Source of the DNA: Vulcanimicrobiota bacterium
GTDB lineage: Bacteria > Vulcanimicrobiota > Vulcanimicrobiia > Vulcanimicrobiales > Vulcanimicrobiaceae
Assembly: GCA_963714015.1 (NCBI GenBank)
Contig: OY970223.1
Location: 1,024,001-1,088,000, forward strand
Direction of reading: 5' to 3'
Length of the DNA stretch: 64,000 nt
Positions within the stretch are counted from its first letter, which is position 1. Every line of letters starts with the position of its first letter. A model generated the notes under the pieces. That model was not told where the DNA came from. It saw nothing but the letters and a program-made list of their open reading frames with translations, and searched no databases. A program made the translations under genes and the position numbers. Of the stretch, positions 3,501 to 11,669 are shown one piece after another.

Positions 3501-3537
3501 TTGGAAACCCGTTTCCGCACGGCACATCCACACGGTC

Positions 3538-4215
3538 TCATTTGGGAAATTCCCCGTGGGCGCCGGGGAGATTTGGAACCTTTGCGGGAGGCAGTTCGCC
3601 GTAGTCGGCGCGGACTTCGTGAAAGCTGCGGACAGGCTCACGCCGGCCGGCTGCGACGGCGACGGCCAGCGCTGAGGGAAGAATCGACCGTTCCAGAGGC
3701 GTCACCGTCCATCCGCGTTCGGCGAGGCCCGCAAGCACGTCCTGTGTATTGCCCATGACGGCCAGGCCGCCGTCCCCCGCTCCGAGGCGATTAAGGACGT
3801 CGGCAACGTACCCGGAATCGCGCCGGTACGCGCCGCCCGACCTCAGCCGGACGGAGACCACGCCCACGCGGCCCCGAACGACGGTGAGCAGCGGCGAAGG
3901 CAGCGACTGCGTTCCCGCCTCGATCGCATCGAAGGAGTTCACGCCGGTCAAGGGGACGCGCCAGCCTTGTGCGAGCGACTTGGCGTAGCTGATAGCGATG
4001 CGGACGCCCGTGAAAGACCCCGGCCCGATGCCCACGGCGAGGCGGCCGACGTCGTCGCCGCGCACACCGGCCTCCTCCAAAATTTGCGCTACCGCTCCCA
4101 GACCTCGCTCCAGCGCCACGCTCGCGGGCAAATCGATGGTCGCGAGCGGTTCTTCATTGCAAGCGATTGCCGCGGAAAACGACCCCAGGCCGCCGTCGAT
4201 CGCGAGGACGATCAC
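3538..4215 (-). CDS. tsaB: t6A biosynthesis protein TsaB
   Basis: VLAID, AVGIGPGSFTGVRI motif. GTG start 4215 overlaps the tsaE stop. Confidence 0.9.
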   Translation of the reverse strand: MIVLAIDGGLGSFSAAIACNEEPLATIDLPASVALERGLGAVAQILEEAGVRGDDVGRLAVGIGPGSFTGVRIAISYAKSLAQGWRVPLTGVNSFDAIEAGTQSLPSPLLTVVRGRVGVVSVRLRSGGAYRRDSGYVADVLNRLGAGDGGLAVMGNTQDVLAGLAERGWTVTPLERSILPSALAVAVAAGRREPVRSFHEVRADYGELPPAKVPNLPGAHGEFPK

Positions 4216-4622
4216 CGGCGCACCCTCACGCGCCGCGGCTCCTCGCCTTTGCCTTCGATCTCGACTTCGTAACGGACCGGCGGCAGCAATTCCGGCGCAT
4301 TTTTCCACCACTCGACAAGCACGATGGAGCGTCCGTCGAAAGCCTCTTCCAAGCCCAGCTCGTCCGCTTCGCCGGGACGTTCGACGCGGTAGAGATCCAA
4401 ATGGTCCACCGGAGGATCGCCGCCATAGCGGTGCCAGAACGTGAACGTCGGGCTGGTTACGGGATCGCTGCCCATTCGCGCGAGCACGACAGCTTTCACG
4501 AATGTAGTCTTTCCCGCGCCGAGCGGACCAGAGAGTCCGACAACGTCGCCTGCACGCAATTCGCGCGCGAATTGCGCTGCAAACTCGCGAAACTCTTCCT
4601 CGGTATAAAATGTTCGATCCAT
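4212..4622 (-). CDS. tsaE: t6A biosynthesis ATPase TsaE
   Basis: GPLGAGKTTF, VTSPTF, HLDLYR, VEW motifs. Confidence 0.95.
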   Translation of the reverse strand: MDRTFYTEEEFREFAAQFARELRAGDVVGLSGPLGAGKTTFVKAVVLARMGSDPVTSPTFTFWHRYGGDPPVDHLDLYRVERPGEADELGLEEAFDGRSIVLVEWWKNAPELLPPVRYEVEIEGKGEEPRRVRVRR

Positions 4623-4692
4623 GGAAACGGCGAAGCAATGCTCCCGTGGTAATAGGTCAGTCGCCGATGTTCTTGCGATTGGGGCGTCTCTC

Positions 4693-4977
4693 CTGACGAA
4701 CCATATACAGGAGATCGTCAAGCAGGCCGAGGCCTACCTCGAAGAACTTCGCGCCGCGGCGGCGGCCGTCCAAGAACGAATCCGGGCCGGAATGCTCCGC
4801 TTGCAGCCGCAAGAGGACGAGCCTATGCCTGATTCACAATCGGAGGCGCCGGCGCGCGAGTTGGATCCAATTTTCGCCACGCGCGAATTCGAGGTTCCGC
4901 CGGATTCGGTACCGCACTCCGAACCGGGCCGGAGCTCCGCGGGGTTAGTTAGTTTCGATGACGAGGACGATGTCTAA
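4693..4977 (+). CDS. Hypothetical protein (helical N-terminus, acidic tail)
   Basis: Part of ORF 4621..4977. Start uncertain: CTG 4693 follows GGGG, while ATG 4621 collides with the tsaE start. Confidence 0.45.
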   Translation: MTNHIQEIVKQAEAYLEELRAAAAAVQERIRAGMLRLQPQEDEPMPDSQSEAPARELDPIFATREFEVPPDSVPHSEPGRSSAGLVSFDDEDDV

Positions 4978-5542
4978 ATTTTCAAATAGTCGATTCAACG
5001 CTCGTCGCGCGCCGAAGGCAATCTCGCCTTTTGGCACTCCAACGTCCGTAATCGGGCCGAAGGCAATCTCGCCTTTTGGCACTCAAACGAACGTAAAGGG
5101 GCCGAAGGCAATCTCGCCTTTTGCCACTCAAACGAACGTAAAGGGGCCGAAGGCCGGGGGCCCCATGCGCTTTGCGTATGCGCGTGTGGAGCACGAACCG
5201 CGGATACTGTTAATGACCATGTCTGAATTTTCAAATAGTCGATTCAACGCTCGTCGCGCGCCGAAGGCAATCTCGCCTTTTGCCTCTCCAACGTCCGTAA
5301 TAGGGCCGAAGGTCTTTCAAAAACGCCTGTTAATGACGATGTCTAAATTTTCAAATAGTCGATTCAACGCTCTTCGCGCGCCGAAGGCAACCTCGCCTTT
5401 TTGGCACTCAAACGTCCGTAATCGGGCCGAAGGCAATCTCGCCTTTTGGCACTCAAACGAACGTAAAGGGGCCGAAGGCCGGGGGCCCCATGCGCTTTGC
5501 GTATGGGGGGCGTGGAGCGCGAAGCGCGGATACGCCTGTTAA
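4966..5542 (+). repeat. Nested palindromic tandem repeat array (REP/MITE-like) upstream of gyrA
   Basis: Three macro-units start ATGTCT(A/G)AATTTTCAAATAGTCGATTCAACGC at 4970, 5219 and 5339. GCCGAAGG occurs at 5011, 5056, 5101, 5146, 5260, 5305, 5380, 5426 and 5471 (45-nt period within units). Confidence 0.95.
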
Positions 5543-8048
5543 ATGAACAACGACATCATTTCGCAGATCAATGTTGAAGACGAAATGCGGGAGAGTTATC
5601 TCTCCTATGCGATGTCGGTTATTGCCTCGCGCGCACTTCCGGACGTGCGCGACGGACTGAAACCGGTTCAGCGGCGCATTCTCTTCGCCATGCGCGAAAT
5701 GGGCATGGATCCCGGTAAACAGCATCGCAAGTGCGCCGGTATCATCGGCGAGGTGCTGAAGTCGTTCCATCCGCACGGGGACTCGTCGGTATACGACGCG
5801 CTCGTGCGCATGGCGCAGGATTTCACGCTGCGCTATCCGCTCGTCGACGGCCACGGCAACTTCGGCTCGATCGATCCGGATCCGCCCGCAGCCTACCGGT
5901 ACACGGAAGCGCGACTGGCGCGTCCTTCCACTGAAGTTCTTAGCGACATCGACAAAGAGACGGTGCCGTTCGTTCCTAACTTCGACAATCAGGGAACCGA
6001 GCCGCGCGTTCTGCCGGGCAAACTGCCGCAGCTCCTGCTCAACGGATCGAGCGGCATCGCCGTCGGCATGGCGACGAACATTCCGCCGCATAATCTGAAC
6101 GAGATTGCCGACGCAATTGCGGCAATCATCGACGATCCTTCGGTTACCGACGACACGCTGGCTGAAATCGTTACCGGTCCCGATTTCCCCACCGGCGGGA
6201 TCATCATGGGCCAAGAAGCGATCAAAGAAGCGTACCGCACGGGCCGCGGCTCCATTTCAATTCGCGGCAAGGCCGAGATCGAAGAAGAGCGCGGGAAGCA
6301 CCGGATCGTCATCACCGAGATTCCGTATCAGGTGTACAAGAACCGGATCGTCGAAGCGATCGCGGAGGCGCACGCCGAGAAGCGTATTCAGGGAATAGCC
6401 CGCCTCGACGACATGAGCAATCGCAAGGGCATGCGCGTCATCGTCGAGCTGCAGAAGTCGGCAACGCCCAAAGTGGTGCTCAATCAGCTTTACAAGCACA
6501 CGCCGCTGCAGTCCAGCTTTGGGTTCAACATGCTCGCGCTCGTCCCGGTGGGGGAACCGCGTCCGGATGGAACCGTTGCGATCGAACCCCAGGTGCTTTC
6601 GCTCAAGCAGCTGCTCGAGCATTACATCACGCACCGCAAAGACGTCGTCACGCAAGCGGACGCAGTACGACCTCCGCAAGGCCGAAGAACGCGCGCATAT
6701 CCTGGAAGGCTACCGGATCGCGCTCGACAACATTGACGAAGTCATCGAGATCATTCGCGCCAGTCAGACGACGGACGAAGCCAAGCAGCGCCTGAGCAAT
6801 CGGTTCCAACTCACTGAGATACAAGCGACTACGATCGTCGACATGCGTCTGCGCACGCTGACCGGCTTGGAACGGCAGAAGATCGAGGACGAGTACGCGG
6901 AACTGATCAAGACCATCGCCGAACTGCAGGATATTTTGAGAAGCCCGCGCCGCATTGCCGGCATCGTGAAGACCGAAATCCTCGAGGTCAAAAAGAAGTT
7001 CGGCGACGACCGGCGCACGGTGATCGTGCCGGCCGAAGACGAGTTTTCGGCCGAAGCGCTCATTCCGAATACGGACGTCGTCGTTACTTCAACCGTCGGC
7101 GGGTACATCAAGCGCGTTTCGGTCGACACGTTCAAGACGCAGAACCGCGGCGGCCGCGGCGTCATCGGCATTTCCAACCTCAAGCGCGAAGACGTCGTGC
7201 GTAACTTCTTCATTACGAAGACGCACGATCACGTGCTGTTCTTCACGAACAAGGGACGCGCGTACCGTTTGCGCGGCTTTGAAATTCCCGATACGACCCG
7301 TCAGGCGCGCGGAACGGCGCTGGTAAACCTGCTGACGCTGCCGCCCGGCGAATACGTTACGGCGGTCTTCCCCGTGCGGAACTTCGGCGGCGAGCGCTAC
7401 ATGGTGATGGTTACCAAGAACGGCGTCATCAAGAAAACCAAGCTCGAGGAGTTCTCGAACGTGCGCCGCAACGGATTGAATTCGATCGGCTTGGACGAAG
7501 CGGACGAACTGCTCGCGGTCGATCTCTCGGACGGCACTCGAGACATCATCCTTGCAACCGTCAACGGAATGGCAGTGCATTTCAACGAGAAAGACGTTCG
7601 CCCCATGGGCCGCAACGCGCGCGGCGTGAAAGCGATGACGCTCGATCGGGGCGACACGATCGTCGCAATGGACGTGCTCGAAGACAATCGCCGCGAGGTG
7701 CTCCTGGTAACGACCAAAGCATTCGGCAAGCGTACGCCCATCGCCGAGTACCGGCATACGTCTCGCGGCGGAAAAGGCGTCAAGGCGTTTGCCAAGGAGC
7801 GGGAGGACATCGGAAAAGTCGTCGATCAGATCCTGGTGGCTCCGGAGGACGAAATCTTGCTGATGACGTCGTCTAATCAGGTCATCCGTCTGCGCGTCTC
7901 CGACATTCGGAAGGCCGGACGCTCTACCAAGGGCGTCCGTCTGCAGCGGCTGGGCGAAGGCGACGAAGTGATTGCGATCACCAACCTGGGCAAACAATCC
8001 AAGCAGATAACCGAGATCACCGGCGAGCCGGCCGACCTCCCGGCGTAG
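5543..8048 (+). CDS. gyrA: DNA gyrase subunit A (one frameshift near 6655, likely a sequencing error)
   Basis: RALPDVRDGLKPVQRR, HPHGDS, AAYRYTE catalytic Tyr; GyrA-box QNRGGRG in the second frame. Confidence 0.95.
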
Positions 8049-8453: not shown

Positions 8454-9801
8454 ATGAGCGCAATGCGCGGTTTGCCCGCCGTGCATCGCCTGTTGTCGGA
8501 CCCGCGGCTCGCGGGTTTCGAGGATTTGTTCGGAAGAGAGCGCGTGAAACGAGCCGTCAACGAAGTCCTCGACCGCGCTCGCCGAACGGCAAACGGCAAT
8601 ACACCGAATTACGATCTTTTGATAGCGGCGGTCGCCGGCAAATTGGACGACGAACGTTTCAGCGCGCTTCTGCCGGTCATCAACGCGACCGGCATTCTTC
8701 TGCATACGAACCTGGGCCGCGCGCCCCTTGCAAGCACCGCGTTGGATGCGGTTGCGAGCATTGGGCGCGGATATTCCAATCTCGAATACGATCTTACAGC
8801 CGGCGAGCGCGGCACGCGTTACTCGCGCGTTACGTCGTTGCTGCATGCGGTTACCGGTGCTCAGGATGTCCTCGTCGTGAACAACTGTGCGGCGGCAGTG
8901 CTCTTGATTTTGGACACATTCGCAAAAGGGCGCCAGGTCGTCGTCGCCCGCAGTCAGCTGGTGGAGATCGGCGGAGGCTTTCGGATCCCGGACGTCTTAG
9001 CGCGCAGCGGTGCGCACCTCGTTGAAGTAGGAGCGACGAACAAGGTCTATCTCTCGGACTTTGAACGAGCGTTGACGGCTCAAACGGCCCTCCTACTGCG
9101 AATCCATCCATCAAACTTTCAGATAAGCGGGTTCACCGCCGAAGTAAGCGGCGCCGAGCTTTCGCGTTTGGGACGGCGCGCGGGAATTCCGGTGGTCGAA
9201 GACTTGGGCAGCGGCGCCCTCGTCGATCTTGCGTCTTGCGGCTTGCCTCACGAGCGCACGGTCCGCGACGCCGTTGAAGACGGCATAGATCTGATCGCGT
9301 TCTCCGGCGACAAAGTGCTGGGCGGACCGCAAGCGGGGATCATCGCAGGCCGAAGCGCGCTCGTCGCGCGGCTGCGCACGAATCCGCTTTTGCGCGCCTT
9401 GCGCGTCGACAAGATGACGCTGGCCGCACTTGGAGAGACGCTCCGCCTGCACGCGTCGCCCGAGCTGCGTAAGCAGATTCCGTTCTTTGCGATGCTCGAA
9501 GCGACGCTCGACGATCTGCGCGAACGCGGCCGCCGCTACACCGGCGGAATAGCCGGGTGCGGCCATCGTCGAAAGCATCGCCTATGCCGGCGGCGGCACG
9601 CTCCCGCAGTCCGAGGTGCCGTCGGTCGCCATTGCTCTGGAACCCGTAAGCGGCGCAACGGCGTTTGCTGCCGCGCTACGCCGTCGAGCGCTGCCGATCG
9701 TGGCGCGCGTCGAGCGAGATCGCGTATTGCTCGACCTTCGGACGATATTGCCGCACCAGGACGAAGACGTCATCCGCGCACTCGTCACCATGATGCGTTG
9801 A
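8454..9801 (+). CDS. selA: L-seryl-tRNA(Sec) selenium transferase (frameshift near 9560)
   Basis: [44 protein letters not shown] lysine; C-terminal LLDLRT in the shifted frame. Confidence 0.93.
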
Positions 9802-11669
9802 TGCACATCATCGGAACGGCCGGCCACGTCGATCACGGGAAATCGTCGCTCGTCAATGCGCTCACGGGTACGAATCCGGATCGCTGGCTGGAGGAGCAAC
9901 TTCGAGGGATGACGCTGGATTTGGGTTTTGCGCATTTGCGTTTTCCCGACGGCGTAGAAGCGGGTATCGTCGACGTCCCGGGTCACGAGCGCTTTCTGCA
10001 TAACATGCTGGCGGGAGCGGCGGGAATGCAGACTTTTGCTTCTCGTCATCGCGGCAACGGAAGGCGTCATGCCGCAGACGATCGAGCATCTGCAGATTCT
10101 GCAGTATCTGAACGTGCGCGAAACGATCGTCGTGCTTACGAAGATGGATCTCATTCCGCCGGAACAAGCCGGAGCCGTCTGCAAAAACGTGTATGAGGAA
10201 CTGAAGGAAACGATGGCGGCGAATGCGCCGATCTTCGCCGTCTCCACGCTGACGGGACAAAATCTCGACGCGCTGCGCGAAGGGATTCACGAAACCCTCG
10301 CGCGGCTGCCGCAGTGCAATCCGTCGGCTCCGGCATATCTCCCCATCGACCGCGTCTTTGCGTTACCTGGACACGGCACAATCGTTACCGGAACGCTGAT
10401 GCAGGGCCGGATTGCAATCGGCGATACTCTTGCGCTGCAGCCCTCCGGAAAACGCGTTCGCGTGCGAAGCTTGCAGAGTTTCGGCGAAAAACGCGACTTC
10501 GTCGAAGGCGGAGCCCGTGCCGCAGTCAACATTCCGTCGGTCGCCGTTCACGACATCGCGCGGGGCGAAATGCTTGTTGCGCCGCAGTTCGAAGCGTCCG
10601 ATTCGTTTCTCGTCGAGTTTACGCCGCTGGAGGCGGCTCTCGCGATTCTTCGGCGGCGCAACGCCGTTCGCGCGTATATCGGATCTGCCGAGATCCTCGG
10701 AACTCTCGTCTTCGAAGAGATTCCGCGCGACCTTCAAACGGTACGCGCCGAGCTGTTTTTGCGTAAGGCCACTGTCGCGTACCCTGGAACGGCTTACGTA
10801 CTGCGACGGCTGTCGCCTAAGGATTTACTGGGCGGCGGAACGATCGCGCGGAGCGCTGGGATCGTCGAATCCGTGCAAGATGCGCCGACGGCGCCCGAGT
10901 CATCGGTTTTGGCCGCGCTCGCGCAGGCCGGTTTAGCCGCGCCGACTGCCGGCGAGATCGCGCGCAGTACCAATCTTCGCGAAGACGGAGTGGAAGAAGC
11001 GCTCGAAGCGCTCGTGCAGCGCGGCGAAGTCCTGCGCATTGCAAAACCGACTGCATACGTGCACGAAAGCGCCGCCGCGCGAGTTTTTTTCGAGGATTGA
11101 GGAAGCGCTGCGGCAGCAGCATGAATTGGAACCCTGGGCAATGGGCGCCACCTCGCTGCGTCTTGCCAGATCGCTCTCTGTCGGACGAGTCGATGCTCGT
11201 CCGGATATTGGACGCTTTCGTAGACCAGGGCAAAGTTGCGCGCCGCGCGGGCTACTTTGCGCTCGTAGGCTTCACGCCGAAACTCAGCAGCGAACAGCAA
11301 GCATTTTTCGACGAAGAACTGCGCACCGGCGCCGCCGCTCCGTTCGCGCCGGTACCGCTCGCGCAAGTCGTCAGCGCCGTGAAGCACTCCCGTATTGACG
11401 GAATCGGCAAGGCTTTCGATACGCTGCTTGCCAAAGGTGCATTAGTGAAGGTAAACGACGACCTTTACCTGGGTGCTCAAATAGCGCAGATACACGGCCG
11501 GATCGAGCAGTTTTTGCGGCTCAACGACCGGATGACCATGGCGCAGTTTCGCGACCTCATCGGAACCTCGCGCAAATATGCCGTCCCCTTGCTCGAGTGG
11601 TTCGACGCCCGCGGCATTACCGTTCGGAGCGGCGATTACCGAATGCTGCGAGCCAAGAAATCCGCGTGA
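9801..11669 (+). CDS. selB: Selenocysteine-specific elongation factor (about three frameshifts: ~10030, ~11090, ~11180)
   Basis: [37 protein letters not shown]-terminal winged helix [20 protein letters not shown]. Confidence 0.93.

Follow-up and report, generated by a model that had tools for sequence, protein, structure and literature searches.

What has come to lie between a small gene and gyrA in this Vulcanimicrobiota genome, and how might gyrase still be made behind it? In the window analysed here (the 64,000-nt stretch at positions 1024001–1088000 of contig OY970223.1, which is C1, the single 3.56-Mb, 61% GC contig of source genome G000), 565 nt separate the stop of the small gene (4977) from the gyrA start (5543). 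We consider it fairly probable that a family-specific three-hairpin repeat has been multiplied locally in this gap, and that its open frame likely carries ribosomes across and restarts them at gyrA. The reading draws on dispersed copies of the repeat, a covarying fold, an empty allele, the open reading frame (ORF) itself, repeat units in multiples of three and a genome-wide enrichment of reading paths.

The array is composed of three macro-units of 249, 120 and 204 nt, measured between the ATGTCT starts at 4970, 5219 and 5339 and the gyrA start at 5543. All three lengths are divisible by three. They contain six 45-nt sub-repeats (at 5011, 5056, 5101, 5260, 5380 and 5426, the copy at 5380 being 46 nt long), and at 5213, 5333 and 5543 ATGA comes directly after CTGTTA(A). 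Inspection of the sequence, repeat searches and decomposition agree on the gap and on this layout, including a run of five T's at 5398–5402, and bear out what an earlier, sequence-only reading of this DNA had described. From left to right, the gap holds a 33-nt spacer, three 45-mers, a decayed core and a junction in which ATGA is followed by a copy of the last codons of the host gene; next come spacer, 45-mer, a 28-nt mini-unit and the second junction, and finally spacer, two 45-mers and an intact core, whose T/A-rich tail follows hairpin 3 and ends on the gyrA start. The individual features are:

4621–4977, forward strand: small upstream gene, ~118 aa, true start uncertain, with homologues in G001, G002, G009 and G022

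4966–4977, forward strand: host-gene tail (codons D-V-stop), of which the internal junctions carry copies; G001 and G002 have a homologous tail

4970–5542, forward strand: putative relay ORF of 190 codons; open frame computed, translation presumed

4975–4979, forward strand: TAAAT at the left junction, present again at 5540–5544; candidate insertion-site repeat, seen in the sequence and presumed in its role

4978–5010, forward strand: locus-specific spacer X, 33 nt, repeated at 5227–5259 and 5347–5379 (decomposition)

5011–5145, forward strand: three tandem 45-nt deleted monomers (first mini-hairpin, 3′ end and 5′ module), partly covered by a short-read contig

5142–5212, forward strand: decayed three-hairpin core (covariance model, 48.7 bits)

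5213–5226, forward strand: junction 1, ATGA and copied host tail (decomposition)

5260–5332, forward strand: one 45-mer, then a 28-nt mini-monomer that finishes with the element's 3′ end (decomposition)

5333–5346, forward strand: junction 2, ATGA and copied host tail (decomposition)

5380–5470, forward strand: two 45-mers, the first with the five-T run, which is real or an assembly indel (decomposition)

5467–5543, forward strand: intact three-hairpin core, the dispersed unit (alignment, covariance model, folding)

5470–5480, forward strand: hairpin 1 of the intact core, GAA loop (folding)

5486–5508, forward strand: hairpin 2 of the intact core, TTT loop (folding)

5509–5536, forward strand: hairpin 3 of the intact core, GAA loop, GA/GGA internal loop (folding)

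5543–8048, forward strand: gyrA, split in the assembly by one extra base near 6652

The 45-mer is best read as a deleted monomer, apparently the core's first mini-hairpin joined to the core's 3′ end, that was amplified locally. As decomposed here, 45-mers and macro-units alike are local duplications carrying the host-gene tail, not the mobile unit. What is dispersed is the terminal ~77-nt three-hairpin core, with full forms of 121–135 nt. BLAST of the array against G000 returned five other places, each matching the terminal core only. The 45-mer pattern occurs in G000 at the gyrA locus alone and has no convincing match in 250 family genomes (17 of the 250 give weak ones, E 7e-4 to 1e-2), which rules it out as the mobile unit. 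Spacer X was likewise found nowhere else by BLAST in G000 or in a search of family genomes.

The core is patchy and restricted to its lineage, as BLAST, a covariance model and synteny show, and the expectation of a dispersed structured repeat is supported. By BLAST it is present in 16 of 36 family genomes and in none of 24 outside the family. The covariance model detects it in 61 of 121 family genomes and, in a second set, in 15 of 32 versus 0 of 68 other genomes of the phylum. Three unpublished matching genomes (G030, G121 and G144), on which no conclusion rests, are included in the tallies of 16/36 and 61/121. An exact 28-nt pattern identified 65 stretches in a species-representative collection, with titles naming Eremiobacterota/Vulcanimicrobiota or unnamed bacteria and none mycobacterial; it had 0 matches in viral contigs. 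The gyrA core belongs to type A. A more distant subfamily, B, dominates G000, where the two together fill 34 sites, and hybrids carry a B-type 5′ module on an A-type core. For 30.3 of 60 cores the nearest relative lies in the same genome (6.7 expected), which fits bursts of copying or homogenisation, and tandem arrays of the family are present in other genomes.

Some loci depart from the simple form. At L004, L033, L042, L049, L163, L168 and L170 another short repeat sits within the hairpin 2 or hairpin 3 loop, suggesting that hairpin loops are insertion targets for another repeat family. A longer variant, seen at L008, L055–L060 (G006), L009, L016, L017 and L054, is extended by a downstream GGG(T/C)CCCC arm and one more hairpin, which might close a multibranch fold.

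Relatives show what the locus looks like without the array. In the two same-genus genomes the upstream stop overlaps the gyrA start, by 8 nt (G001) or as GTGA (G002); in G009 and G022 the two are no more than 9 nt apart. A related contig from a public run joins position 4930 directly to 5565. Searches of 27 other gyrA loci with both profiles revealed no A or B copy before gyrA, apart from a 21-nt end-like match in G011 (E 0.034). Since this junction is tight or overlapping in relatives, the 565-nt gap is an insertion, and the comparison of empty and filled alleles suggested earlier bears this out. Syntenic comparisons among family genomes also reveal patchy occupancy. The left edge of the insertion is the stop of the small upstream gene, in which third codon positions change about twice as often as first and second positions (against G001 and G002) and for which a Pfam search gave no family match. 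In an alternative history, position 4970 would once have been the gyrA start, overlapping the small gene as the G001 start does, and the repeat would have entered a few codons downstream of it. The small gene is missing between tsaE and gyrA in several family genomes, and the first ATG of its ORF shares a CATG palindrome (4620–4623) with the likely tsaE start on the opposite strand.

The region 5335–5545 folds at z −3.6. The imperfect hairpin reported within the 45-mer folds as drawn (z −2.6 and −2.9), and both reported terminal hairpins are seen, with two amendments: there is an additional first small hairpin at 5470–5480, and the last hairpin is embedded in a longer stem at 5509–5536. All three hairpins of the core form in RNA and DNA folding models. 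In an alignment of 28 copies, pairing is kept in 95.8% of cells, and both partners have changed in 8 of the 24 pairs (0 of 500 shuffles), in a test for which the structure was drawn from one of the 28 sequences and whose result is inflated by their relatedness. Counted with a required C:G closing pair and a free loop, hairpin 3 has a GNA triloop in 74 of 74 complete A cores (GCA 50, GAA 14, GGA 7 and GTA 3) and hairpin 1 in 70 of 74. PMC3201870 describes d(GNA) triloops closed by a C:G pair as very stable in DNA. Because the triloop is present in all 74 cores, the element probably adopts a folded single-stranded DNA form, with the top strand as the one that folds.

The top strand contains G-T pairs 31 times and A-C pairs 0 times and folds better as RNA (−40.6 versus −31.4 kcal/mol); this wobble bias would also fit an RNA fold. 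It is one of the observations that favour a domesticated mRNA element, a stabiliser or translational control at housekeeping operons for which the open frame is a by-product. The copies in G000, nearly always sense and upstream of core genes, and the sites common to several genera point the same way. However, roughly half of the copies in relatives face the end of the next gene, the gyrA site is empty in relatives, and the neighbour genes have no common function. Rfam gave 0 matches at E up to 1 in 4600–5800, and no intrinsic terminator or sigma-70 promoter was called. We therefore regard an mRNA element as quite unlikely.

One ORF spans the whole array from an ATG at 4970; the other two frames contain 9 and 8 stops. 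As assembled, the 190-codon frame ends in a TAA abutting the gyrA ATG. Removal of one T from the five-T run gives ...GGRGARSADTPVK, with a final TGA that overlaps the gyrA ATG, as had been proposed, although the uncorrected frame already stops directly at the gene. Both versions terminate at coupling distance, which is therefore independent of the T correction. At the other end, the ATG at 4970 overlaps the upstream-gene stop by 8 nt and is the likely relay start. The decayed core is 5 nt shorter than the intact copy, and the frame consequently reads through it instead of stopping.

A relay path like that at gyrA is found in 5% of shuffled spacers (rate 0.05; 0.045 for gyrB). In G000 as a whole, a path from the upstream stop to the next start is kept at 13 of 22 sites, compared with 6.35 expected from shuffled spacers (P 4e-4); 28 sites were given to this test, 22 had a called upstream gene, the windows were chosen by us and some upstream calls skip small genes. 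The enrichment upholds the idea that the element stays translatable. Seven of the 13 paths finish with a −4 overlap (ATGA/GTGA), and a three-step chain recreates a 10-nt overlap. The single-ORF version of the test in relatives found paths for 12 of 23 sense copies (4.2 expected) and 5 of 19 antisense copies (1.9 expected). At gyrB, a three-copy B-type array (G000:C1:707640–708027, reverse strand) provides a 129-codon relay ending in GTGA, so the family stacks at the genes of both gyrase subunits.

The last stem of the gyrA array ends 6 nt before the ATG, and only GGA could pair with the anti-Shine–Dalgarno sequence. The predicted unpaired probability at −20 to −7 is 0.29 in the filled allele and 0.38–0.55 in empty ones. 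The last hairpin is thus predicted to mask the ribosome-loading region of gyrA, which has no clear Shine–Dalgarno sequence. Gyrase would then continue to be produced only from alleles in which such a path is translated, the others being presumably removed by selection.

Another junction in the window also holds a copy:

3501–3577, reverse strand: B-subfamily remnant at the junction of two genes that we take, from their translated ORFs, to be tsaB and rimI (profile match, E 0.0016)

This remnant is incorporated in the tsaB terminus, after which a 14-codon ATGA...ATGA relay leads to rimI (3541–3497); TTTCC(C)AAATGA stands at either end. A full B copy is present in G013 (L066:3493–3609), ~1.3 kb ahead of gyrA and probably at the same tsaB–rimI junction.

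At 21 of the 34 G000 sites the last stem is followed by a start codon at +6 to +8 (18 by automated calls, 3 by eye), whereas a start within 12 nt was seen for 34 of 600 control positions, and an automated sense start lies within 60 nt at 27 of the 34. The copies follow gene direction on both replichores (25 leading, 9 lagging), which rules out a replication-strand bias. A few are located beside tRNA genes, and one is antisense inside what is presumably, from its translations, the kdp operon.

Our survey of relatives covers 87 A-type sites (85 loci including gyrA, and two more G000 sites), 84 of them with a downstream gene called by a codon-score model, some of whose calls are wrong. Forty-four of the 84 copies are sense to that gene, with a start within 12 nt in 8, within 50 nt in 18 and farther away in 18. 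The other 40 are antisense and face its end, 28 of them with a stop within 20 nt, and their tail often reads as a stop, AA and ATG on the other strand. With ATG/GTG at +6 to +8 in 10 of the 87 sites and so many copies facing a gene's end, the general targeting of start codons or ATGA junctions that the sequence-only reading envisaged does not hold. Two verified copies among the 87 sites are read in-frame, as anticipated by analogy with Rickettsia palindromic elements (RPE). One lies inside RecG of G013 and the other is a 36-codon N-terminal insert in G142, placed just after the start codon and absent from G009 and G108.

The rimP–nusA, atpA, rpsS, rplK and rplJ junctions are filled in more than one genus, some by different subfamilies. 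In a rival explanation, the insertion machinery itself recognises translation junctions (starts or stops of actively translated genes) and the bias arises from targeting, not later selection. The housekeeping junctions that hold type A or type B depending on the genome are in line with this, as are the exact start-codon spacing on both replichores of G000 and the 28 antisense copies that end close to a stop. An A/T-rich motif in a 61% GC genome, combined with selection, nevertheless predicts an identical pattern; distances in relatives are loose, as the 8 of 44 sense copies within 12 nt illustrate, and copies also lie beside tRNA genes and inside coding regions. We judge targeting of this kind unlikely. 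To a related possibility we likewise give little weight, namely a transposase-free hairpin family of single-stranded DNA for which a host enzyme picks translation junctions on either strand, the element being built for translation both ways. If this were true, the sense end would give restart stops, the antisense end would give a start right behind the host stop, and the repeat would amount to a mobile element that is transparent to ribosomes, follows a new rule of targeting and can settle in gyrA, gyrB and ribosomal operons.

The rimP–nusA junction is filled in four genomes from several genera (L006, L044, L119 and L239), and at this junction in G000 (C1:~3363390) only the last ~16 nt of the element remain, which points either to a hot spot or to an ancient insertion being eroded down to its 3′ end. 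At L028 (G017:C1:1419200–1421700) the copy is flanked by a ~50-nt duplication of the 3′ part of a tRNA gene, and copies stand just before tRNA genes at L007, L139 and L143.

The ends of the insertions bear on how the element may move. The gyrA insert has TAAAT at both ends (4975 and 5540) and ATGA at its junctions, and a filled allele in G007, compared with the empty one in G106, has TCAG at both junctions. Full-length copies, 121–126 nt long, have defined ends with short ATGGC/GCCAT complementarity. In our preferred account, a non-autonomous monomer would enter a short A/T-rich motif typical of stop or stop/start junctions (TAAAT at gyrA; in relatives, T(T/C)AG), probably as folded single-stranded DNA on which an enzyme from another locus would act. 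Slippage or microhomology duplication at the ATGA ends may then have made the 45-mers and macro-units, host tail included.

These short terminal repeats and the defined, partly complementary ends could also belong to an ordinary miniature inverted-repeat element (MITE) moved by a cut-and-paste transposase with a 3–5-nt target duplication. At gyrA, however, there is no long terminal inverted repeat, the junction triplets do not co-vary, and searches of 5 genomes and 5 metagenome matches turned up no autonomous element that shares these ends. We consider a cut-and-paste origin very unlikely and, with neither long inverted ends at gyrA nor a transposase partner found, do not assign the repeat to the MITEs. 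Long flank duplications, recreating stop/start overlaps, occur at 6 of 86 sites, which rules out a long, retro-like target duplication as the insertion signature. Together with the absence of reverse transcriptase PF00078 from all 5 copy-rich genomes, it also speaks against a retroelement-mobilised repeat.

Y1 transposase PF01797 is found in none of the 5 copy-rich genomes and in 9 of 201 family genomes. GIY-YIG nucleases are present in all five, none beside the repeat. The 33 Y1 and GIY-YIG loci gave no repeat-model match at E below 0.6, and the Y1 loci inspected resemble IS200/IS605 or fragments. In the genomes and loci searched, no RAYT or other Y1 gene of the kind that the sequence-only reading suggested looking for could be tied to the repeat. 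A Pfam scan of 49 of the 53 neighbour ORFs without a close G000 homologue (464 called) identified no mobile-element family. At 6 places in 5 genomes 5′ modules lead into a gene, all of them short elements or deleted forms, and of the 5 metagenome matches 1 resembled the 5′ module and 4 were unrelated. With no mobiliser found, the argument for mobility is one from distribution alone.

Several observations weigh against a translated, locally multiplied repeat. In two of three frames the element's own tail supplies a stop close enough for coupling, so that the right end alone is weak proof of a relay, and the non-redundant 181 nt of the gyrA array are stop-free in 9% of shuffles. Nine of the 22 G000 sites have no path, with gene calls that are automated and contain visible errors. 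The drop in accessibility from empty to filled alleles is small, and we infer translation of the relay frame from its sequence. B-type copies have no GNA loops, the loop of hairpin 2 is pyrimidine, and the flanking triplets are identical in 2 of 10 full-length copies (P 0.7). The sites filled in several genera are also compatible with old, retained insertions. Finally, no mobilising gene was found, in searches that left IS110, IS91 and the tyrosine and serine recombinases outside.

Assembly quality affects how literally the array can be read. Over ~182 kb of conserved coding sequence the assembly shows 16 apparent frameshifts, and near 6652 gyrA has one extra base relative to three relatives. 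With one of the frameshifts in gyrA, the fifth T of the run may be an error. A selA/selB-like region at 8454–11669 appears as several overlapping frames, and both it and gyrA are likely broken by assembly indels. A 75-nt contig from run X1, which is perhaps not independent of the assembly, covers the tandem 45-mer junction at 5056–5130 with one mismatch; none of the public-run contigs examined covers the T-run or spans the array. It could be argued that the monomer is real and the tandem stack partly an artefact of long-read assembly, given ~1 apparent frameshift per 11 kb, gyrA included, and the lack of a spanning contig among those examined. Against this, the copies differ by structured substitutions and deletions, the short-read contig over the 45-mer junction has ~2x the depth of near-identical single-copy contigs from the same run, and the family forms tandem arrays in other genomes as well. 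We consider an artefact of this kind very improbable.

Among known systems, the closest analogue is the mycobacterial interspersed repetitive unit (MIRU) rather than REP/REPIN. PMC12548453 and PMC3184786 describe MIRUs as mobile-looking units, 40–100 bp long and placed at start codons, that have tetranucleotide repeats and an ORF coupled at −4. The likeness extends to a short GC-rich structured repeat in operon spacers, present in tens of copies with empty and filled alleles; to an internal ORF coupled to the neighbour genes (at gyrA, start at −8 and end at 0 or −4); and to size class, the core measuring 77 nt and the full forms, at 121–135 nt, being somewhat longer. Supply et al. (1997) is said to be the original MIRU paper. 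The present repeat differs in its phylum, in its modular three-hairpin core with GNA triloops and in its nested 565-nt stack at gyrA, read as one 190-codon frame. In relatives it occurs in both orientations, often on opposite-strand stops and sometimes in-frame in proteins. It is set apart from MIRU by the lack of a mycobacterial match to the 28-nt pattern, without direct comparison with MIRU sequences.

REP, REPIN and BIME elements resemble it in being small palindromic extragenic repeats that form clusters, end near or supply stops and are occasionally intragenic (PMC3733652, in its accessible part). Unlike them, the consensus of 28 copies has no GTAG or CGTC end tag, no RAYT (Y1) gene is flanked by the repeat, and the units are arranged head-to-tail instead of as inverted doublets. 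RPE, as portrayed in the accessible parts of PMC3184786 and PMC3733652, share the ~100–150-nt size, the folding and the in-frame position inside proteins. Such in-frame cases are rare here (2 of 87), in a comparison by description only; of the analogies first drawn, that with RPE is retained for these copies and that with REP/REPIN gives way to MIRU. Miniature elements derived from IS200/IS605 have subterminal hairpins, one folded strand and T/A-rich junctions without clear duplication, and the repeat is alike in these respects. The IS200/IS605 copies of the family, in contrast, share no end sequence with it.

By analogy, the repeat would work like a MIRU, as a new sequence family that is neither a MIRU member nor a REP/REPIN. 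We found no publication on such a repeat in Eremiobacterota/Vulcanimicrobiota in the open literature, subscription papers being outside this coverage. The working principle is already known from MIRUs; new here are the anatomy of the gyrA stack and the confinement of the 45-mer to this locus, together with a triloop signature of DNA type and, in relatives, placement in both directions, at stop codons and in-frame. Within the family, the stacks probably are variable-number markers and give rise to false calls of small genes and start sites. The MIRU coupling idea becomes testable by comparison, through empty and filled pairs, both orientations, in-frame insertions and the arrays ahead of the two gyrase genes. 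In a phylum distant from the mycobacteria, then, a repeat appears to live in essential operons by staying translatable.

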